Of a stretch of DNA of 64,000 nucleotides, positions 40,501 through 51,733 are shown one piece after another. Position 1 is the stretch's first letter, and each line of letters starts with the position of its first letter. The notes beneath the pieces are model-generated. The model had not been told where the DNA came from. It did no database searches and worked only from the letters and a program-made list of their open reading frames with translations. The stretch lies in the NCBI RefSeq assembly GCF_056746865.1, contig NZ_CM163382.1; one strand, written 5' to 3'. Both the position numbers and the translations under genes were made by a program.

Positions 40501-41296
40501 CGTTCTGGCTGTAGCTGTCATCAATCGAAATATCAATAAGATAGGGAGCCGACACGCTATTGGTATAAATTGCCCCACCATAACCTTCGGCAGTGTTATT
40601 TGTAAATGCGGTGTTATTTATTATTGTGAAACCTGACGGATGCGTGATATCGCTATTATTATCGGTGACATCGATTGCCCCCCCATCGCCATCACTGTAA
40701 CTTGTTGATGTATATGCCTGGTTGTTATCAAAAATAACTTTACTTAAATAGACGTCATTGTTGATGGTATAAATTCCACCACCTTTGCCGTCATTAGCGA
40801 TGTTATTGCGAAACACGGCGTTAGTGACACTTAAATCGACGACACCGGTATCGTTAGTACCAGAAGAATAGATTGCGCCACCATAGCCACCTGCAACGTT
40901 ATCGGAAAAAATAACATTAGTAAGATTCAGCGTTGAGTTTTCTTTAGCAAATATTGCCCCGCCGTTATTATATTCTCCTGAGACAGTATTATTGGCAAAC
41001 AGAGTCATTCCAGTTTCATTTTCTGGCGATAGAGAAAACTCCGCTCCTTGTTGCAAAAATACGGCCCCACCGCTGGCGTTATTGGTCATATCCGAAAAAA
41101 CCAGCCATTGCCCATCGGCGATGCTCCAGTCCTGCGTAATGCCTGAAAGGCTTTGCCTGCTGGCGTGACAACTCGCTTTGATATCATATCCCTGACATGA
41201 ATCAATGACCGCCGCGACACCGTTAGCAGAGAAAAGAGATGCAATCATTGACGGGAGTAAAGATAAATACTCCTTGCGTAGAAAAATAATCCGCAT
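37583..41296 (-). CDS. yfaL: YfaL, AIDA-type autotransporter adhesin (1237 aa)
   Basis: Signal peptide MRIIFLRKEYLSLLPSMIASLFSANGVAA, pectate-lyase-like passenger repeats, proline-rich linker, C-terminal beta-barrel ending KW. Confidence 0.9.
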   Translation of the reverse strand: MRIIFLRKEYLSLLPSMIASLFSANGVAAVIDSCQGYDIKASCHASRQSLSGITQDWSIADGQWLVFSDMTNNASGGAVFLQQGAEFSLSPENETGMTLFANNTVSGEYNNGGAIFAKENSTLNLTNVIFSDNVAGGYGGAIYSSGTNDTGVVDLSVTNAVFRNNIANDGKGGGIYTINNDVYLSKVIFDNNQAYTSTSYSDGDGGAIDVTDNNSDITHPSGFTIINNTAFTNNTAEGYGGAIYTNSVSAPYLIDISIDDSYSQNGGVLIDENNSAAGYGDGPSTAAGGFMYLGLSEVTFDIADGKTLVIGNTENDGAVDSIAGTGVITKTGSGDLVLNADNNDFTGEMQIENGEVTLGRSNSLMNVGDTHCQDDPQDCYGLTIGSIDQYQNQAELNVGSTQQTFVHALTGFQNGTLNIDAGGNVTVNQGSFAGTIEGAGQLTIAQNGSYVLAGAQSMALTGDIVVDDGAVLTLEGDAADLAALQDDPQSIVLNGGVLDLSDFATWQSCTSYNDGLAVSGSGGTVIGSQDVVDLAGGDNLHIGGDGLVSLANNNSYLGTTQIASGTLVVSDNSQLGDTHYNRQVIFTDNQQESVMEITANVDTRSTTTEHGRDIEMRADGEVAVDAGVDTQWGGLMADSSGQHQDEGSTLTKTGAGTLELTASGTTQSAVRVEEGTLKGDVADIFPYASSLWVGDGATFKTGADQDIQSIDATSSGTIDISDGTVLRLTGQDTSVALNASLFNGDGTLVNATDGVTLTGELNTNLETDSLTYLSNVTVNGNLTNTSGAVSLQNGVAGDTLTVNGDYTGGGTLLLDSELNGDDSASDQLVLNGNTAGNTTVVINPITGIGEPTSTGIKVVDFAADPTQFQNNAQFSLAGSGYVNMGAYDYTLVEDNNDWYLRSQEVTPPSPPDPDPTPDPDPTPDPDPTPDPDPTPAYQPVLNAKVGGYFNNLRAANQAFVMERHDHAGGNGQTLNLRVIGGDYHYTAAGQLAQHEDTSTVQLSGDLFSGRWGTDGEWMLGAVGGYSDNQGDSRSNMTGTCADNQNHGYAVGLTSSWFQHGNQKQGAWLDSWLQYAWFNNDVSEHEDGADHYHSSGIIASLEAGYQWLPGRGVVIEPQAQVIYQGVQQDDFTAANHARVSQSQGDDIQTRLGLHSEWRTAVGVTPTLDLNYYHDPHATEIEEDGSTISDDAVKQRGEIKVGVTGNISQRVSLRGNVAWQKGSDDFAQTAGFLSMTVKW
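38494..38573 (-). repeat. In-frame tandem repeat in yfaL encoding (PDPDPT)x4 linker
   Basis: Four 18-bp units GGATC(G/A)GG(A/G)TC(C/G)GG(T/A)GT... on the plus strand; translation PPSPPDPDPTPDPDPTPDPDPTPDPDPTP. Confidence 0.8.
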
Positions 41297-41829
41297 ATTA
41301 ATCTGACCATCATTTTCTATAAGACGGCATATTTAATCGCATTATACGATATGGGTTATTTTTCTTTTGTAAATTGTTCAACCCGGTGCAATGGCTATTT
41401 TGTTATTATTTCATGAATAATATCAGTGCGTCATAATTCAAGTTAATCACCTTAAGGGATATTAGTTATATTTAAACTGAATTAAAGTAATGAATAATTT
41501 TCTTATAATATAAGGTAAATTAACAAAATGGCTTCGCATTTAACAATAACCGAAGAGAAAACAACCATTTCGATATCAACAATCGCTTACATTCGCTTAT
41601 ATATTGACCAGAACTGATACATCAGATTATGTGATGACTCGTGCTTAGATCAATTTTTGCAATCATTAGCCAAAAGATTAATAAACCATCTATATCAATT
41701 TATCTAACCTATTCTTCCGTTCAAGAAATCGCCGAACAGTTATTTTTAACAAATTTTTCTCTTCCCATTGACTTTCCCGGACACCTTGTCTGACCTAAGG
41801 TGCGCGAAAGCCACTTTTTCCTTCCTGAG

Positions 41830-41838
41830 TTATCCACA
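41830..41838 (+). promoter_or_regulatory. Consensus DnaA box TTATCCACA in nrdAB promoter region
   Basis: Exact 9-mer match to TTATNCACA about 160 bp upstream of nrdA ATG. Confidence 0.6.
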
Positions 41839-41868
41839 AAGTTATGCACTTGCAAGAGGGCCATTTTC

Positions 41869-41915
41869 ACACTATCTTGCAGTGAATCCCAAACATACCC
41901 CCTATATATAGTGTT
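41869..41915 (+). promoter_or_regulatory. Candidate NrdR boxes / nrdAB core promoter (ACACTATCTTGCAGTG ... CCCTATATATAGTGTT)
   Basis: Two 16-bp partially palindromic boxes spaced about 30 bp apart; resembles the tandem NrdR operator arrangement; not compared to a database. Confidence 0.4.
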
Positions 41916-41991
41916 CTAAGCAGCTTCCCTCACTACAGGTAGTCTGCATGAAACTATTGCGGAAAGAATTCCAAAAACAGGTACGACATAC

Positions 41992-44277
41992 ATGAATCAG
42001 AATCTGCTGGTGACAAAGCGCGACGGTAGCACAGAGCGCATCAATCTCGACAAAATCCATCGCGTTCTGGATTGGGCGGCAGAAGGACTGCATAACGTTT
42101 CGATTTCCCAGGTCGAACTGCGCTCCCACATTCAGTTTTATGACGGTATCAAGACCTCTGACATCCACGAAACCATTATCAAGGCTGCCGCAGACCTGAT
42201 CTCCCGTGATGCGCCGGATTATCAGTATCTCGCCGCGCGCCTGGCAATCTTCCACCTGCGTAAAAAAGCCTACGGCCAGTTTGAGCCGCCTGCGCTGTAC
42301 GACCACGTGGTGAAAATGGTCGAGATGGGCAAATACGATAATCATCTGCTGGAAGACTACACGGAAGAAGAGTTCAAGCAGATGGACACGTTTATCGATC
42401 ACGACCGTGATATGACCTTCTCTTATGCTGCCGTTAAGCAGCTGGAAGGCAAATATCTGGTACAGAACCGCGTGACCGGCGAAATCTACGAAAGCGCCCA
42501 GTTCCTTTATATTCTGGTTGCCGCGTGCCTGTTCTCGAACTACCCGCGTGAAACGCGCCTGCAATACGTGAAGCGTTTTTACGACGCGGTTTCCACATTT
42601 AAAATTTCGCTGCCGACGCCAATCATGTCCGGCGTGCGTACCCCGACTCGTCAGTTCAGCTCCTGCGTACTGATCGAGTGCGGCGACAGCCTGGATTCCA
42701 TCAACGCCACCTCCAGCGCGATTGTGAAATATGTTTCCCAGCGTGCCGGGATCGGCATCAATGCCGGGCGTATTCGTGCGCTGGGTAGCCCGATTCGCGG
42801 TGGCGAAGCGTTCCATACCGGTTGTATTCCGTTCTATAAGCATTTCCAGACAGCGGTGAAATCCTGCTCTCAGGGCGGTGTGCGTGGCGGTGCGGCTACG
42901 CTGTTCTACCCGATGTGGCATCTGGAAGTGGAAAGCCTGTTGGTGTTGAAAAACAACCGTGGGGTGGAAGGCAACCGCGTGCGTCATATGGACTACGGGG
43001 TACAAATCAACAAACTGATGTATACCCGTCTGCTGAAAGGTGAAGATATCACCCTGTTCAGCCCGTCCGACGTACCGGGGCTGTACGACGCGTTCTTCGC
43101 CGATCAGGAAGAGTTTGAACGCCTGTACACCAAATATGAGAAAGACGACAGCATCCGCAAGCAGCGTGTGAAAGCCGTTGAGCTGTTCTCGCTGATGATG
43201 CAGGAACGTGCGTCTACCGGTCGAATCTATATTCAGAACGTTGACCACTGCAATACCCATAGCCCGTTTGATCCGGCCATCGCGCCAGTGCGCCAGTCTA
43301 ACCTGTGCCTGGAAATCGCCCTGCCGACCAAACCGCTGAATGATGTCAACGACGAGAACGGTGAAATCGCGCTGTGTACGTTGTCTGCTTTCAACCTGGG
43401 CGCAATTAATAGCCTGGATGAACTGGAAGAGCTGGCGATTCTGGCAGTACGCGCACTCGACGCGCTGCTGGATTATCAGGATTACCCGATCCCGGCCGCC
43501 AAACGTGGAGCGATGGGTCGTCGTACGCTGGGTATTGGTGTGATCAACTTCGCTTACTACCTGGCGAAGCACGGTAAACGCTACTCCGACGGCAGCGCCA
43601 ACAACCTGACACATAAAACCTTCGAAGCTATTCAGTATTACCTGCTGAAAGCCTCTAATGAGCTGGCGAAAGAGCAAGGCGCGTGCCCGTGGTTTAACGA
43701 AACCACTTACGCGAAAGGGATCCTGCCGATCGATACCTATAAGAAAGATCTGGATGCCATCGCTAATGAGCCGCTGCATTACGACTGGGAAGCACTGCGT
43801 GAGTCAATCAAAACGCACGGCCTGCGTAACTCCACGCTTTCTGCTCTGATGCCGTCAGAGACTTCTTCGCAGATCTCTAACGCCACTAACGGTATTGAAC
43901 CGCCGCGCGGTTACGTCAGCATCAAAGCGTCGAAAGACGGTATTCTCCGCCAGGTGGTGCCGGACTACGAGCATCTGCACGACGCCTATGAGCTGCTGTG
44001 GGAAATGCCGGGTAACGATGGCTACCTGCAACTGGTGGGTATCATGCAGAAATTTATCGATCAGTCGATCTCTGCTAACACCAACTACGATCCGTCACGC
44101 TTCCCGTCAGGAAAAGTGCCGATGCAGCAACTGCTGAAAGACCTGCTCACCGCCTACAAATTCGGGGTCAAAACGCTGTATTATCAGAACACCCGTGACG
44201 GCGCTGAAGACGCACAAGACGATCTGGTGCCGTCAATCCAGGACGATGGCTGCGAAAGCGGCGCATGTAAGATCTGA
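41992..44277 (+). CDS. nrdA: Ribonucleoside-diphosphate reductase 1 alpha subunit (761 aa)
   Basis: Translation [33 protein letters not shown]... (ATP-cone), active-site region NLCLEIALP. Confidence 0.96.
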
Positions 44278-45948: not shown

Positions 45949-46599
45949 TTACATGGCGTAGTAATACGCTTTCACCTGCTCCCAGTCCGCTTTAGGGATC
46001 GGCTCCAGATATTTTTCCAGCTGGCGGAAGTCATGATTAATCGCTTTATCGCGACGCAAGCGGCGACGACTTTTCTCCAGATCAAGAAAACCAGCTTCTG
46101 CCTTACCTTCTGTTTTCACATAGATATGGCGAACATAACAACAGCCATGCTGACGATTAACGCTATGCATTTTCTTAAACGCCAGCGCCACTGCTTTCAA
46201 CATGGCTTGCCGTACTTCGTCAGAATAGGGCGTTACTGCATGCTGGGCATACCAGTCAGCAATGCTGATGAACCCCGCCATATCTTCAGTCACCAGCAAC
46301 GCGCGCCATTCCCCCTCAATTTTCACCGCTTCACCAAAAACGATCTTCGGCACGATGACACCGGCCCGTTCCAGTTCTTTAATTACCGCAACCTCACGGA
46401 CAATCGTTGGTCGGCCGAAAGGATAACGTACGGAATGAAACAGATGATGCGTCATGCGCTTTACATATAGCTTTTTGCCGTTGCGCTCGACGCATTGCAC
46501 CCCGCTCATACCATTACGGCGATAGTTAGGCTCTTCAACCCAGTCGCCCTCTGTTGCCCACCAGTGATTAAATTCGTCGTGCTTTGCTGAAACTGCCAT
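45949..46599 (-). CDS. inaA: InaA, pH-inducible Kdo-kinase/WaaP-like protein (216 aa)
   Basis: Translation MAVSAKHDEFNHWWATEGDWVEEPNYRRNGMSGVQCVERNGKKLYVKR... Confidence 0.9.
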   Translation of the reverse strand: MAVSAKHDEFNHWWATEGDWVEEPNYRRNGMSGVQCVERNGKKLYVKRMTHHLFHSVRYPFGRPTIVREVAVIKELERAGVIVPKIVFGEAVKIEGEWRALLVTEDMAGFISIADWYAQHAVTPYSDEVRQAMLKAVALAFKKMHSVNRQHGCCYVRHIYVKTEGKAEAGFLDLEKSRRRLRRDKAINHDFRQLEKYLEPIPKADWEQVKAYYYAM

Positions 46600-46679
46600 A
46601 CCCTATCGCCTGTCATTTTTTATTAACGACAATGACTATAGGTGGTTACCTGCGAAAAATCTTAATGAAACGTGTCGTA

Positions 46680-47870
46680 TTAATGAATTTCTTTTGCCAC
46701 TACTAGCGCGACACCGCTTTTACCCTTCATTTGCAGCGCATAGACTCCACCAGCCACTACCACTAATAGTGCACCCAGCAGATAAATCATTCGGTAGCCA
46801 GTATGTGCAACCATCATCCCCATCACACAGGCTCCCAGCGCCAGGCCTGCATCCATCGCATTGAAGAATAGGGAGTTTGCGACACCGATTTTATGCGGTT
46901 CCACTGAACTGATAATCTGCGTCTGAAAAACTGGCGTCACGGAACCATACCCGATACCAATCAACGCGCCAGAAACAACCATCATTATGCTTCCCTGGGT
47001 GTAGCCGAGAACCACCAGTCCAACCGTAAAGAACACAAGGCAAGGGTAAACCACATATTTCGGTCCTTTTTTGTCGCAGACATTGCCGGTAAAGGTACGG
47101 CAGATCATCAGGAAGATAGCGTAGCAAAGCAGGAAATTACTGGCTGCCGACATCAGGTTAAGTTCGCGTGCATAAAGCGCCAGAAAAGCAGAAACCCCGG
47201 CATACGAAAAGGTCATAAAAAAGGTGACCATCGCAAATGGCAACGCCGCGCGATCGAACATGGCGGCGAAGCCCATTTTCGGCTTTGAACCATCAGCATG
47301 GCTGATAACCGGCGGCACTGTCATAATCAGCGACAGAATAATCCCCACCGCTGCCACGCCGGTGCATAACCAGAAAGCCATATTAAAGGCCTCCCAGCGC
47401 GCCATATTCAGGCCAATCCACGGCCCGACCACCATTGCCAGCCCCATTGCCAGAGAGAAAAAACTGATGCCCTCCCCACGTCGGGAGGCCGGGATCAGCC
47501 GCGCGGAAATCGTTCCTTTTACCGTAGTAATAACCCCGAAGGTAATACCATGAAGCACCCGAATAAAAAGCAGTGATTCAATTGAGTGGCAAAAAGGATA
47601 CAACGCAGTGACCAACAAAAAGGCCAGAGAAGAGAGCACCAGAATAGTTTTATTCGAATATTTACCCACCCATTGCCCGGCAAAGGGGCGAATAACAATG
47701 GCGGCAATTAAAAATAAAGTCACCAATAAACCGGCTTTATCAGGAGAGGCATGCAAGCGGTCAGAGATATAAATTGGCAACAATGTTAGTAAAACATAAA
47801 AGACGAAGAAAATAATAAAGCTGATGATGGTTATTGCCCAAAAATCCTTCGTCCATAACTTCTCTTTCAT
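46680..47870 (-). CDS. MFS-family transporter, 12 TM predicted (396 aa), substrate unknown
   Basis: Highly hydrophobic translation with MFS-like loop motif RLIPASRRGEG; divergent from a LysR regulator. Confidence 0.8.
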   Translation of the reverse strand: MKEKLWTKDFWAITIISFIIFFVFYVLLTLLPIYISDRLHASPDKAGLLVTLFLIAAIVIRPFAGQWVGKYSNKTILVLSSLAFLLVTALYPFCHSIESLLFIRVLHGITFGVITTVKGTISARLIPASRRGEGISFFSLAMGLAMVVGPWIGLNMARWEAFNMAFWLCTGVAAVGIILSLIMTVPPVISHADGSKPKMGFAAMFDRAALPFAMVTFFMTFSYAGVSAFLALYARELNLMSAASNFLLCYAIFLMICRTFTGNVCDKKGPKYVVYPCLVFFTVGLVVLGYTQGSIMMVVSGALIGIGYGSVTPVFQTQIISSVEPHKIGVANSLFFNAMDAGLALGACVMGMMVAHTGYRMIYLLGALLVVVAGGVYALQMKGKSGVALVVAKEIH

Positions 47871-48021
47871 ACCCTACCGCCTGTCAGGATGACGCACGCA
47901 GACAACACTCCCGTTACTGCGGTTGCGTCAAATTGTGATGTACTTTGCAGAACAGAAGTATAAATGGCGGCATGCTATTAGAGAAATTAATCGTTTTAAT
48001 ATTATTGATTAGCAAACTCTA

Positions 48022-48900
48022 ATGACTCTTACCCAAATAAATTCTTTACTCGCCGTGCTGGATTACGGTGGCTTTACTGAAGCCAGCAAGCGATTGTTCA
48101 TGACGCAGTCGGCGGTAAGTCAGGCAATTGCTGCCCTCGAACAAGAACTTGGTGTGAATATACTGTTACGCGATCGCCGTAAAGCTATACAACTGACCAC
48201 AGCAGGTCATCGCATTGTGCATCATCTGCGCGCCATTAATCGGGAAGTTAACGCAGTAAAAGAGATAGCCGAGCAGGAAAAGCAGAACCCTCAAAGAACG
48301 CTGAGACTTGGTTGTTTCCCCAGCGTCTGCGCCTGTATCTTACCGGCTGTGATTCGCTACTTTGAAATTCATCATCCGAATATAAAAATTATTCCTTTTG
48401 AGGAAAATAGCACAGCGATTATTGATTCCCTTCAGAATGAATCCATTGATGCCGGTTTTGTTCATTTTCCGGTGAGCGGAATGTACTCCGTGCCCATTTA
48501 TCAGGATAAATTCACCGTAGTGTTACCGCCCAACCATGCTCTGGCAAAAAACAGCACTATTACAGTGGAAGAGTTAATGGGTGAACCATTAATTATTAGT
48601 AAAGGACGCTATGAATTAAGCATTATGGCACTATTTAAAGAAAAGAATATTACCCCACAGATAAAATATGAATTTAATCACCCGGATACAGCGATCAGTT
48701 TTATTCGACAGGGATTAGGCATCGCCTTATTACCAGAGTTAACGCTGAAAACCATTGCAGATGAATTGTGTTCCGTTCCTCTCGAACCAACCTTCTATCG
48801 ACAGATTTCGTTGCTGGCTAAAGAAAAGCCGGTAGAAGGCAGTCCACTGTTTTTACTACAAATGTGTACGGAACAACTCGTGGTGAGTGGAAAAATTTGA
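48022..48900 (+). CDS. LysR-family transcriptional regulator (292 aa); position of the K-12 yfaH pseudogene
   Basis: N-terminal HTH FMTQSAVSQAIAALEQELGVNILLRDRR plus substrate-binding domain; weak Shine-Dalgarno. Confidence 0.8.
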   Translation: MTLTQINSLLAVLDYGGFTEASKRLFMTQSAVSQAIAALEQELGVNILLRDRRKAIQLTTAGHRIVHHLRAINREVNAVKEIAEQEKQNPQRTLRLGCFPSVCACILPAVIRYFEIHHPNIKIIPFEENSTAIIDSLQNESIDAGFVHFPVSGMYSVPIYQDKFTVVLPPNHALAKNSTITVEELMGEPLIISKGRYELSIMALFKEKNITPQIKYEFNHPDTAISFIRQGLGIALLPELTLKTIADELCSVPLEPTFYRQISLLAKEKPVEGSPLFLLQMCTEQLVVSGKI

Positions 48901-49045
48901 TGTAAGACATGAGATTGATGACAAATGCAAGACTGCCTGATTCGCCACACTTAGTTGTACTATAGCCTTTACCAGGCGTAATAATTCGTTTTCACCTGAT
49001 TTTGGCCCACTTTGTGAATTGGCGATATATATTTATCCAGTTGGG

Positions 49046-49177
49046 AGAAGTGACAATGACTCCAGGTAGAAACCGGTATGAAGCGCCCGACTCACTGTCA
49101 AAACCGATTGTTGAGAGTAATGACACTCCGGCGAACAGTACACAGTTTACTCTGGAGCCATTCTCAATCTTCAAGTG
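49046..49177 (+). CDS. Candidate small protein (43 aa) MTPGRNRYEAPDSLSKPIVESNDTPANSTQFTLEPFSIFKWDT
   Basis: GGGAGAA Shine-Dalgarno 6-8 nt before ATG; internal to the 61-aa track ORF 49002..49187; no homology evidence. Confidence 0.25.
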
Positions 49178-49365
49178 GGATACCTAATAACTTGTCAGGG
49201 AAGTTATCAATATCTGTTTGTTACTTATTACCGTATTTATTAACAATAATGATACTTTCTAACATGCGTAAAGGTCTTCGTAATAAAATGAGCTAAATTT
49301 GATAGTGAATATATTTTGCAAAGATTAGATTGTATCTTGTTAACTCACACTACAAGGAATCATTT

Positions 49366-50436
49366 ATGCCAAATACATCTATTCACTTATCTCGCTGTAA
49401 TATTTTACAAAATAATAAATTGCAACCAGCAGAAGTTTACAAAGAATCACAACAAACCGCGAAACTTGAGATTTTTTGCGATGAGTTTCTAAAAATATCT
49501 CAAAGTAGATACGGGTTATCAACCTCAGCAGACAGCATAGCTAATTTATTGGCTTTTTTCACGAAAGCCTCAGATGCAATTGATAGTATCAAGACCCAAA
49601 AAATTGACGTTCACAGTTATGGTTTCGTACCAATAAGACATTTTGTCGAACATGTCATAACGTATAAAAATGAATTTGCAGCGGATTATGAACCCTATAC
49701 CCTTACCTTTACCCGAGGTGAAAACAACGAAGGTATTTTGAGTGTCGAAAGCAAAGAAGGGTTTATTTCACAAAGAACAATAAACTTAAATGAATATGAA
49801 ACTGCAATTAACATCATCAATGAACATGTTATAAAAGAAAATATCCACAACACGGTCCAGTCACCGACAGAAAAAGACATTTCAAAAATAAACAGCTCTG
49901 ATAAACCTTATAAAACCAGCAGTGAGGAAAGTATTAAAAGTCAACTTTACAGCGATCAAAAAAAATATACAGACCTGCTACTACATTCTGAGAAAAATAC
50001 AGAATGGTACAAATACGCATCCTCCGTGGAACGCTATGATAAATTCAAGAATTCTTCTAAGGAAATTAAAAATACCTACAAGCAAATTGTACAAGCGCAG
50101 AAAAAATTGAACCAAATGAAATACATAAATAAATTAAGTGGTGAGCTTATCGATATCGCCGACAAAAAGTTAGCACCATTAATAAATGATAGTTTCAGCT
50201 ATACACGAGATTTCTTTGCTTACTCAAAACAGGAAAATAACATCTTCACGTTTGATAATTCTAAGTTTGAAGATCCAAAGGAAAAAAAAGGTTTAATGGT
50301 ACAACACAGCAATGGACAACTGGTTATTACTGGTGAATATTGTCCTGAAGGTGTGCAAACAGCATTCACTCAAGACCAATATGATAAATTAATAAGATAC
50401 ATTAATATTTTCTTTACTTTTCCGAAATGCGAATAA
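49366..50436 (+). CDS. Hypothetical protein, A+T-rich ORFan (~356 aa), no signal peptide or TM
   Basis: Long ORF in visibly A+T-rich DNA; AAGGA Shine-Dalgarno 8 nt before ATG at 49366; Lys/Asn/Ser-rich; no recognisable motif. Confidence 0.7.
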   Translation: MPNTSIHLSRCNILQNNKLQPAEVYKESQQTAKLEIFCDEFLKISQSRYGLSTSADSIANLLAFFTKASDAIDSIKTQKIDVHSYGFVPIRHFVEHVITYKNEFAADYEPYTLTFTRGENNEGILSVESKEGFISQRTINLNEYETAINIINEHVIKENIHNTVQSPTEKDISKINSSDKPYKTSSEESIKSQLYSDQKKYTDLLLHSEKNTEWYKYASSVERYDKFKNSSKEIKNTYKQIVQAQKKLNQMKYINKLSGELIDIADKKLAPLINDSFSYTRDFFAYSKQENNIFTFDNSKFEDPKEKKGLMVQHSNGQLVITGEYCPEGVQTAFTQDQYDKLIRYINIFFTFPKCE

Positions 50437-50656
50437 TACTTTACAGTATAAACTGCAATACAATTTATTATTGAACCCAATTCATACTATTTAAGGAATA
50501 ACAATGCCCAGTGTTAGCTTTCTTAACGAATGAGTTTTACGCAAATATGTTGGCATCTTTTTTAACAGGATGCACCGGTTAATGAATAGAACAACCGGGA
50601 GTAACATTATTTCTCTTTAGCAGAGGATGGCGCATGAACGCCATCCTGCAATAGCA

Positions 50657-51733
50657 TTACTCTTTATTAAGGAATTTTACTGCCTTATCAGGGAAATCAG
50701 TAAACAGCCCATTTACACCCGCTTTGTTATACAGAGCATCATATAACTGATTCACATCAGTAGTGTATTCAGGCAGTTTATCTGACCGCACGGTATAAGG
50801 ATGCACTACCAGCTTGTTCTGCTGAGCATCTTGCACCATGCCAGTGAGTTTGATATTACCCGGCTGCGATGTCTCCTCAATCAACATATGGTAATCCGGA
50901 CCAATACCATCTGCATATTCCGCCACCTGTTTCATGGCTCCCGGCTTAAACATCCAGTCGTAGTTGTAATTAACCCAGCTTCCGTCCGGCTGTTTCTGCT
51001 GAGTTTCGTTCCAGTCGGTATAGGCAATCAGCTGTACCAGATTGAGGTCCATGCCCATTTTAGGTTCCAGCTCATTCTTAATACGCTTCAGTTCATCGGC
51101 ATCAAAACATTGCAAATAAACTTTGTCGTCCTTACCGGTGTAACCATATTTCTTCAGCACTTCCAGCGTTTTTGCCGCAATATCCTTCCCTTCCTGATGA
51201 TGGAACCACGGCGCTTTAATTTCTGGATAGATACCGATATTTTTCCCGGTAGAGTGATTTAACCCCTGAACAAATTCAATCTCTTCTTCGAAAGTGTGTA
51301 CCCGGAAGTCAGATTTACCCATCGGGAAACGGCCCGGATAAGTCTGTACTTTCTTACCGTTTTCAATATCGAAACCTTCGGTAAATTTCAGTGACTTAAT
51401 TTCATCGAGCGTGAAATCTATCGCGTAGTAACGACCGTCTTTGCGCGCCCGATCCGGGAAACGATCGGCAACATCAGTAACACGATCGAGATAATGGTCA
51501 TGCAGGACAACCAGATGGTCGTCTTTGGTCATCACCAAATCTTGTTCCAGATAATCCGCTCCCTGCGCATACGCCATCGCTTTTGCTGGCAGCGTATGCT
51601 CCGGCAAATATCCACTGGCACCGCGATGGGCGATGACTATTTTTTCGTTGTTATCCGCCGCCATTGCACCGCTTCCCATGACCATAGTGCTCATCATGAT
51701 CGCCATGCTAAGGTTTTTCAGCGTCAATTTCAT
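50657..51733 (-). CDS. glpQ: Periplasmic glycerophosphodiester phosphodiesterase (358 aa)
   Basis: Translation MKLTLKNLSMAIMMSTMVMGSGAMAADNNEKIVIAHRGASGYLPEHT... Confidence 0.93.
   Translation of the reverse strand: MKLTLKNLSMAIMMSTMVMGSGAMAADNNEKIVIAHRGASGYLPEHTLPAKAMAYAQGADYLEQDLVMTKDDHLVVLHDHYLDRVTDVADRFPDRARKDGRYYAIDFTLDEIKSLKFTEGFDIENGKKVQTYPGRFPMGKSDFRVHTFEEEIEFVQGLNHSTGKNIGIYPEIKAPWFHHQEGKDIAAKTLEVLKKYGYTGKDDKVYLQCFDADELKRIKNELEPKMGMDLNLVQLIAYTDWNETQQKQPDGSWVNYNYDWMFKPGAMKQVAEYADGIGPDYHMLIEETSQPGNIKLTGMVQDAQQNKLVVHPYTVRSDKLPEYTTDVNQLYDALYNKAGVNGLFTDFPDKAVKFLNKE

Follow-up and report, generated by a model that had tools for sequence, protein, structure and literature searches.

Species-restricted open reading frames of Escherichia coli (ORFans), reportedly characterised by Daubin and Ochman in Genome Res in 2004, form the familiar class to which the subject of this study is best compared. 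We examined an open reading frame (ORF) of 356 codons at positions 49366-50436 on the plus strand of a 64-kb stretch of an E. coli chromosome (contig NZ_CM163382.1 of RefSeq assembly GCF_056746865.1; ~51% GC overall), and the term "window" denotes this whole stretch of 64,000 nucleotides throughout. Like the described ORFans, the ORF has no homologues outside the species, is A+T-rich and patchily distributed, shows fast amino-acid evolution with retention of the frame, and is presumed to come from an unsampled mobile or phage source. However, at 356 amino acids (aa) it is long where ORFans are typically short, and it lies outside any prophage or island carrying mobility genes. It also differs in being old, with a diversity matching that of the flanking core genes, and its ratio of non-synonymous to synonymous divergence (omega), 0.5-0.9, stands at the upper end. 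The ORF is best seen as an ordinary uncharacterised accessory orphan of a familiar class rather than as a new system.

Other described groups share some of these traits. The single-gene anti-phage genes in PADLOC-DB are likewise accessory, patchy, rapidly evolving and stand-alone, but unlike them the ORF has no hidden Markov model match, no defence-island or mobile-element context and no effector domain. Similarly, the type III effectors that enterohaemorrhagic E. coli (EHEC) encodes outside its locus of enterocyte effacement (LEE) resemble it as A+T-rich orphan coding sequences in O157:H7 whose N-terminus lacks acidic residues, whereas the ORF is not prophage-borne, occurs in other pathotypes too and has no sequence relatives. 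The HxxEH motif is the inverted zinc-binding motif of the M16 "inverzincin" peptidases and of LuxS; the ORF protein carries an invariant H92-F-V-E-H96 in a predicted helix, yet neither Pfam nor PDB comparisons link it to these families. Finally, the ORF adjoins O-island 97 (OI-97) of O157:H7 strain EDL933, which is likewise missing from K-12 and lies within the same inaA-glpQ interval. Reported effects of the island's LysR-family regulator, Z3495, are activation of LEE genes via rcsF and promotion of both colonisation and LEE expression (PMC10819331). The OI-97 that was defined and deleted there comprises 2,006 bp with z3494 and z3495 only (PMC10819331), so the ORF lies outside it; unlike OI-97, it belongs to an insertion of its own, which lies downstream of the yfaH remnant of K-12 and segregates independently.

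Our findings lead us to lean towards reading the ORF as a real orphan gene confined to E. coli, which is dispensable and encodes a conditionally useful, non-enzymatic accessory protein. It shows the traits by which ORFans are recognised: no homologue outside E. coli, a frame kept open beyond chance, and A+T-rich DNA with accelerated protein evolution. Its dispensability follows from IS1 insertions, a nonsense allele and its absence from 81% of genomes. The gene and its ribosome-binding site are as follows.

49366-50436, plus strand: orphan ORF, 356 aa, orthologue by gene order of ECs3123 of O157:H7 Sakai
49354-49358, plus strand: Shine-Dalgarno sequence AAGGA, 7 nt 5' of the ATG, read directly and invariant in 12 alleles

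The ORF runs from a canonical ATG, conserved among alleles, through 356 codons to a stop. It is a genuine coding sequence and not a chance ORF, because 356 stop-free codons have a probability of P ~4.6e-13 at its base composition and the remaining five frames contain 16-42 stops over the same span. The assignment to ECs3123 follows from the Sakai numbering, in which nrdA is ECs3117, ECs3121 is a "putative antibiotic efflux protein" and glpT is ECs3125; we presume that Z3496 is the corresponding tag in EDL933. Literature under Z3496 or ECs3123 contains no mention of the ORF, and its protein is already held in databases as a "hypothetical protein", the O157 allele being RefSeq WP_001301786.1. 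The coding DNA has 32.9% GC and a GC fraction at third codon positions (GC3) of 0.30, against 0.50-0.66 for glpQ, glpT and nrdA, and its region is the lowest-GC block in the window. At 40501-42000 there is a second low-GC block (39%), which takes in sequence upstream of nrdA together with the 5' end of a minus-strand ORF of 1,237 codons (37583-41296).

The encoded protein has a mass of 41.2 kDa, a pI of 6.3 and a grand average of hydropathy (GRAVY) of -0.67, and is rich in K (10.4%), S (9.6%), I (9.0%), E (8.1%) and N (7.3%). It has neither a transmembrane segment nor a signal-peptide-like h-region (19-residue Kyte-Doolittle maximum 0.86), and its first 22 residues include zero acidic ones. 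A sequence-only reading made earlier of this DNA had given the same coordinates and Shine-Dalgarno sequence, the lack of transmembrane segments and signal peptide, the low GC content and the Lys/Asn/Ser/Glu-rich composition, all of which we confirm. It had also called the gene an ORFan without a recognisable domain, a view that it would have given up on clear homology to a characterised family or on a frame not kept open in related strains; neither emerges from the searches and the allele survey that follow.

Across 5,426 complete E. coli genomes, the ORF is carried by 1,052, always at the same chromosomal site and essentially in single copy; carriers include non-EHEC strains such as 042 and urinary and bloodstream isolates. 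Empty sites are seen in E. albertii, Salmonella and Citrobacter, and within E. coli in K-12 and numerous further strains. A protein search of 5.8e9 clusters returned E. coli sequences only, at 83-100% identity, and an exhaustive HMMER scan of 1.84e9 cluster representatives found E. coli-type fragments only, apart from a spurious match with a repeat protein of 1,001 aa (E 1.4e-4). When one genome each was searched for 100,044 species, there was a single match, on a contig of a metagenome-assembled genome labelled "Collinsella". This "Collinsella sp." contig, JAIJJM010000334.1 (3,474 bp; from a genome that serves as a GTDB species representative), is 100% identical to window positions 47287-50760 and represents E. 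coli contamination.

Phage, plasmid and viral-contig collections contained no copies of the ORF (tblastn, blastn and a viral-contig scan). The sole "plasmid" match, NZ_CP141089.1 in PLSDB, is a mislabelled 4.94-Mb E. coli chromosome, and, as regards a donor, the phage and plasmid searches otherwise gave only A+T-rich stretches of 50 nt that match C. difficile elements by chance. The protein has no match in Pfam, NCBIfam, PADLOC, PHROGs, PDB sequences or PDB profiles: Pfam at E <=10 gave only a chance coiled-coil match, and PADLOC-DB gave 0 families at E <=1. Foldseek against the PDB found no match at E <=0.001, its best hit (E 0.13, from a model with a predicted local distance difference test score, pLDDT, of 42) being a small SRP9/14 alpha-beta fold with TMq 0.15. 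None of the sequence and profile searches, the exhaustive HMMER scan included, led to a characterised family.

The gene order in the window is nrdA-nrdB-yfaE-inaA, a major facilitator superfamily (MFS) gene (46680-47870, minus strand), a LysR-family gene (48022-48900, plus strand), the ORF, glpQ (50657-51733, minus strand), glpT and glpABC. By aligning the empty sites of K-12 and E. albertii to the window, we defined the ends of the foreign segment and its borders.

48910-50624, no strand assigned: A+T-rich insertion of ~1,715 bp, 34% GC; the K-12 and E. albertii empty sites join ...48909 to 50624..., with the junction ambiguous by 1 nt
48022-48900, plus strand: LysR-family regulator, the ancestral neighbour (orthologue of EHEC Z3495)
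50625-50646, minus strand: glpQ terminator hairpin (GGATGGCG-CATGAA-CGCCATCC), the right border of the insertion, present at the K-12 and E. albertii empty sites

The insertion starts 9 nt past the LysR stop and ends directly before the glpQ terminator hairpin, which is ancestral backbone outside the insert; the ORF is its sole conserved long gene. Comparison of the junctions with the empty sites revealed no target-site duplication, no terminal inverted or direct repeats (overlap <=1 nt) and no transposase, integrase or other mobility gene, and a transposable or integrative element was rejected on these grounds. A toxin-antitoxin or addiction module was also rejected, since there is no adjacent partner gene and the insert holds a single long ORF. 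The insert is collinear across both junctions in all 16 carrier alleles aligned, and it therefore goes back to a single ancestral event. Maximum-likelihood (ML) synonymous divergence (dS) among ORF alleles reaches ~0.10, comparable to 0.04-0.13 for glpQ, so the insert is about as old as sampled E. coli diversity. This insertion anatomy is a new result.

We assessed how often the frame is open in 25 carriers evenly spaced among the 1,052. Ten of these were translated and all 10 were intact; in five, IS1 interrupts the ORF near codon 254, and a further one holds only an IS1-deletion remnant. In strain GDSC2227PM, an IS1-mediated deletion has removed LysR and most of the ORF. Eight further loci chosen across identity classes added six intact frames and two exceptions, strain N96 with the nonsense mutation Y286* (TAC -> TAA) and strain 6EVA with two +1 homopolymer insertions, possibly sequencing errors. 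The frame is consequently open in 16 of the 18 alleles without insertion sequences (IS), which were chosen regardless of protein length. In the most divergent allele class, picked by DNA similarity and not by protein length, the ORF spans exactly 1,071 bp in all 18 complete genomes. Three homopolymer tracts of the ORF are of note.

49958-49965, plus strand: slippage-prone A8 tract; A7 (-1) in the O157:H7/O55:H7/Combat11I9 allele, A9 (+1) giving a 208-aa protein
49993-49997, plus strand: A5 tract; lengthened to A6 (+1) in the O157-type allele, which thereby returns to frame 34 nt downstream of its -1 slip
50282-50289, plus strand: second A8 tract, at or near which a few truncated alleles (P0009, P0011) end

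The double slip of the O157 allele recodes 11 residues, from KKYTDLLLHSE to RNIQTCYYILR, before the frame is regained. The A9 truncation, represented by a protein cluster with 541 member sequences (P0016), was considered as a common state and rejected, as it occurs in just 2 of ~1,048 complete genomes.

To measure selection, we used 16 alleles sampled without length bias, a neutral expectation simulated by placing the observed mutation spectrum randomly in the frame, and an indel expectation taken from the non-coding DNA of the insert itself. Among 141 substitution events there is 1 true nonsense mutation where 7.1 are expected (P = 0.005), and the ORF shows 4 indel events against 10 expected (Poisson P = 0.03), two of the four being the compensating O157 pair. 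These results provide moderate evidence that selection favours an uninterrupted frame, and there is little evidence that the residue identities of the protein matter. By the Nei-Gojobori method, omega is 0.44-0.74 for diverged ORF pairs compared with 0.01-0.15 for glpQ and inaA. With YN00/ML, which models transition bias and codon frequencies, it is 0.5-0.9 and exceeds 1 for close pairs, compared with 0.02-0.22 for glpQ. An apparently clear signal of purifying selection (Nei-Gojobori ~0.55, several pairwise Fisher P <0.05) was downgraded, because simulation and YN00/ML showed that transition bias and A+T-rich codons largely account for it as an artefact.

Divergence is unevenly spread along the gene, and one segment stands out.

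49831-50073, plus strand: hypervariable central segment, aa 156-236, with ~3-fold more divergence, synonymous and non-synonymous alike, than the flanking parts of the ORF

An A+T-rich fragment of ~1.7 kb entered an E. coli ancestor once, between the LysR stop and the glpQ terminator; its donor was probably an unsampled A+T-rich element. The insert has since persisted as a presence/absence polymorphism, its frame kept open while its residues are barely constrained. The product is predicted to be a 41-kDa hydrophilic, mainly alpha-helical cytoplasmic protein, with two putatively better-conserved blocks (about aa 24-155 and 237-356) around the hypervariable centre. Most likely, it would act as a stand-alone, non-enzymatic factor of a binding or scaffold type, useful only under particular conditions; its expression in the laboratory would presumably be low, and strains could lose it without much cost.

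Several observations weigh against a gene with a present function. Substitution events per site are as frequent in the ORF (0.138) as in the non-coding flanks of the insert (0.129), and the ratio of synonymous to non-synonymous changes, 42:96, does not differ significantly from the neutral 34.7:99.3 (P = 0.09). The depletion of indels is only marginal by a binomial test (P = 0.13), which leaves the deficit of nonsense mutations and a single compensated frameshift as the main arguments for a current function. A promoter/terminator scan of the leader upstream of the ORF found no sigma-70 consensus promoter, and no expression, proteomic or phenotype data for the ORF were found in the literature. 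In addition, the structural description draws on models with pLDDT ~40, and the binding or scaffold role is argued from the absence of evidence for catalysis.

Much of this would equally be expected under the main rival, which holds that the ORF is a functionless relic that worked in its donor and has been drifting neutrally in E. coli, its frame still open because too few mutations have occurred, on its way to becoming a pseudogene. An omega of 0.5-0.9, above 1 for close pairs, evolution as fast as that of the non-coding flanks, the lack of a promoter consensus, the absence of the gene from 81% of genomes and its repeated disruption, whether by IS1, by a nonsense mutation or by slips in homopolymers, are all consistent with such decay. 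However, neutral drift does not readily account for 1 nonsense mutation against 7.1 expected among 141 events (P = 0.005), for the tendency of indels towards depletion relative to the flanks, or for the spread of a compensated frameshift allele through the O157:H7/O55:H7 lineage. We regard the relic as a real but rather unlikely alternative.

The hypervariable centre raises the possibility of a stand-alone anti-phage, anti-competitor or host-interaction factor under mixed purifying and diversifying selection. Patchy presence, A+T-rich foreign DNA and an omega near 1 with the frame retained would fit such a conflict gene, as would the variable centre itself. In that segment, nucleotide diversity (pi) is 0.081 against 0.024 and 0.034 in the flanking parts of the ORF, substitution events per site are 0.298 against 0.088 and 0.114, and the proportion of synonymous differences (pS) is 0.21-0.29. 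Nevertheless, the ratio of non-synonymous to synonymous changes, 42:12, is not clearly above the neutral ratio of ~2.9 and gives no signal of positive selection. Because synonymous sites are as elevated as non-synonymous ones, the pattern suggests that old allele classes have recombined to give a mosaic ancestry, or that some mutational effect acts locally, rather than positive selection. A conflict role is further disfavoured by the lack of any PADLOC or PHROGs match and by a fixed chromosomal site without integrase, defence-island neighbours or mobile element, and we consider it improbable.

In its boldest form, this alternative would make the ORF the first member of a new family of inter-genomic conflict (phage exclusion, competitor or host interaction), possibly a metal-dependent enzyme built around the HxxEH helix. 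The near-neutral omega would then combine purifying selection on the terminal domains with diversifying selection on the centre, and the compensated O157:H7 frameshift would signal real selective value. The motif (window 49639-49653) is invariant in 9 alleles; from residue frequencies, we estimate that a five-residue HxxEH occurs by chance in ~1.4% of proteins of like size and composition. As no domain-level similarity stands behind it, we treat it as a lead only. AlphaFold2 models from a 9-allele alignment were uninformative (pLDDT 41.9, and 39.5 for the N-terminal 166 aa). An internal duplication of aa ~131-152 and 328-347, spotted by eye, was rejected because BLASTP gave no alignment at E <=100. 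We give this extended proposal a low probability as well.

The neighbouring genes bear on a further alternative and on the history of the locus. In EHEC EDL933, the MFS gene is z3494 and the LysR gene z3495, together named "O-island 97", which the literature describes as laterally acquired and which has been studied as a virulence island. LysR orthologues occur in E. albertii (90% identity), Salmonella enterica (81%), Citrobacter (~77%) and Klebsiella (69%). The E. albertii, Salmonella and Citrobacter contigs have the order nrdAB-yfaE-MFS-LysR-glpQ-glpT without an ORF between LysR and glpQ, the gap between the stop codons of these two genes being 42-115 bp; in K-12, LysR is reduced to its last 207 nt (yfaH), which abut glpQ likewise. 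Since the pair is syntenic between yfaE and glpQ in these three groups, comparative gene order indicates that the OI-97 genes are an ancestral enterobacterial pair deleted in K-12 and not an acquired island, which is a new result. The pair is present in ~1,216 genomes and the ORF in 1,052, and all four combinations occur (L numbers denote loci in our collection).

MFS-LysR present, insert present: the window, O157:H7
MFS-LysR present, insert absent: CLSC36, O169:H41, DSM 103246
yfaH remnant only, insert present: L005, L006, L008, L016, L018, L025-L028, L030
yfaH remnant only, insert absent: K-12

The sequence-only reading had attributed the gene to horizontal acquisition on two grounds. The foreign-looking A+T-rich DNA stands, whereas the location beside a regulator and a transporter does not support a co-acquired island, given the ancestral state of the pair, the separate origin of the ORF on a 1.7-kb insertion and the existence of the four combinations. 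The effector, defence and addiction roles that it had offered as speculation are unsupported, as there is no PADLOC match, no partner gene and no link to a mobile element or a type III secretion system.

For an effector in particular, or an EHEC virulence gene regulated by Z3495, one can point to the adjoining LEE-promoting LysR regulator on the same strand (PMC10819331) and to an N-terminus whose first 22 residues lack acidic ones, reminiscent of type III secretion signals. Yet the ORF falls outside the OI-97 deletion that was studied (PMC10819331), is found both with and without the regulator and in non-EHEC isolates, occupies a backbone site between core genes and not an effector locus or prophage, and has no resemblance to any known effector. 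This makes a virulence role highly improbable.

Other features of the interval were recorded alongside. The inaA gene (window ~45950-46600) is not between yfaE and MFS in the E. albertii, Salmonella and Citrobacter loci (L019 4442-4659; L020 4647-4649; L021 4589-4593), and gene order suggests that it may itself have arrived at this position in E. coli, by insertion or relocation. The lineage that carries the 98.8% allele (WP5-S18-ESBL-07, JCH8249) has a LysR gene interrupted by an internal stop (L003 2657-3535; L012), and the annotation of empty-site strains (L022, L023) gives LysR 7 additional codons (299 aa). For the O157:H7 strain FRIK944, the annotation places an internal stop in glpQ (L015 1895-2271). 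The inaA-glpQ interval is a recurrent IS target, with ISVsa5 between MFS and LysR in DSM 103246 (L024 4749-5957) and IS1 in the cases given above (L017 1387-2084; L004 4248-4945).

A more specific objection comes from genome annotation. The Prokaryotic Genome Annotation Pipeline (PGAP) applies the label "frameshifted" to many alleles, among them that of strain 118UI, whose sequence is identical to the one in the window, which taken at face value would make the ORF a pseudogene in the strain studied here. All of these sequences translate without interruption, including the loci so marked in our collection (L001, L003, L011, L012, L016, L018, L025-L028, L030 and L031), and window-type alleles are open for 356 codons. 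Every divergent allele class reads QK[KE]Y[TAI]DLL[LQ]HSEK in the window frame, so this frame is ancestral and the doubly slipped O157 form derived; relative to the ancestral gene, the window allele is not disrupted. The label arises because the reference, WP_001301786.1, carries the derived -1/+1 slips of O157. The "frameshifted pseudogene" label on window-type alleles is thus an artefact, and its source is a new result; translation and allele comparison refute this alternative, to which we attach almost no credence.

Upstream of the ORF, the insert contains a leader with one small frame that is consistently open.

48910-49365, plus strand: insert leader, 456 nt, non-coding
49056-49187, plus strand: 43-codon small ORF in the leader, open in 12/12 alleles and annotated as coding sequence WP_259394523.1 in strain PE164

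This small ORF ends 178 nt upstream of the ORF, has no recognised features and shows too few substitutions for judging selection. Among other small frames of the leader, one of 72 aa is broken in L007 and a minus-strand frame of 60 aa is broken in several alleles. The sequence-only reading had thought silencing by H-NS probable. With 34% GC against ~51% for the window, the insert is A+T-rich, as a candidate for such xenogeneic silencing would be. No high-affinity H-NS motif (TCGATAAATT-type, <=1 mismatch) lies inside it, which is weak negative evidence only.

A chance ORF or a non-coding element (an RNA gene or regulatory DNA), although in line with a nucleotide conservation in the ORF no higher than in the flanks, is effectively excluded by the open frame (P ~5e-13), the lack of any Rfam match in the insert at E <=1 and the absence of repeats or structured elements there.

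These findings have consequences for how the gene is seen in sequence databases and for the interpretation of OI-97. Because the PGAP reference is the derived O157:H7 allele, the gene in its intact ancestral form is lost from the annotated proteomes of a large share of carriers (several hundred genomes). Within the OI-97 interval, foreign DNA is confined to the neighbouring, unstudied 1.7-kb insert. If a conflict-related or enzymatic role were true, the ORF would define a new family, and nothing that we found requires it. The locus is an old single-gene orphan whose frame has been retained while its residues drift, and, with its four natural states, it may serve as a test case for selection on orphan genes.

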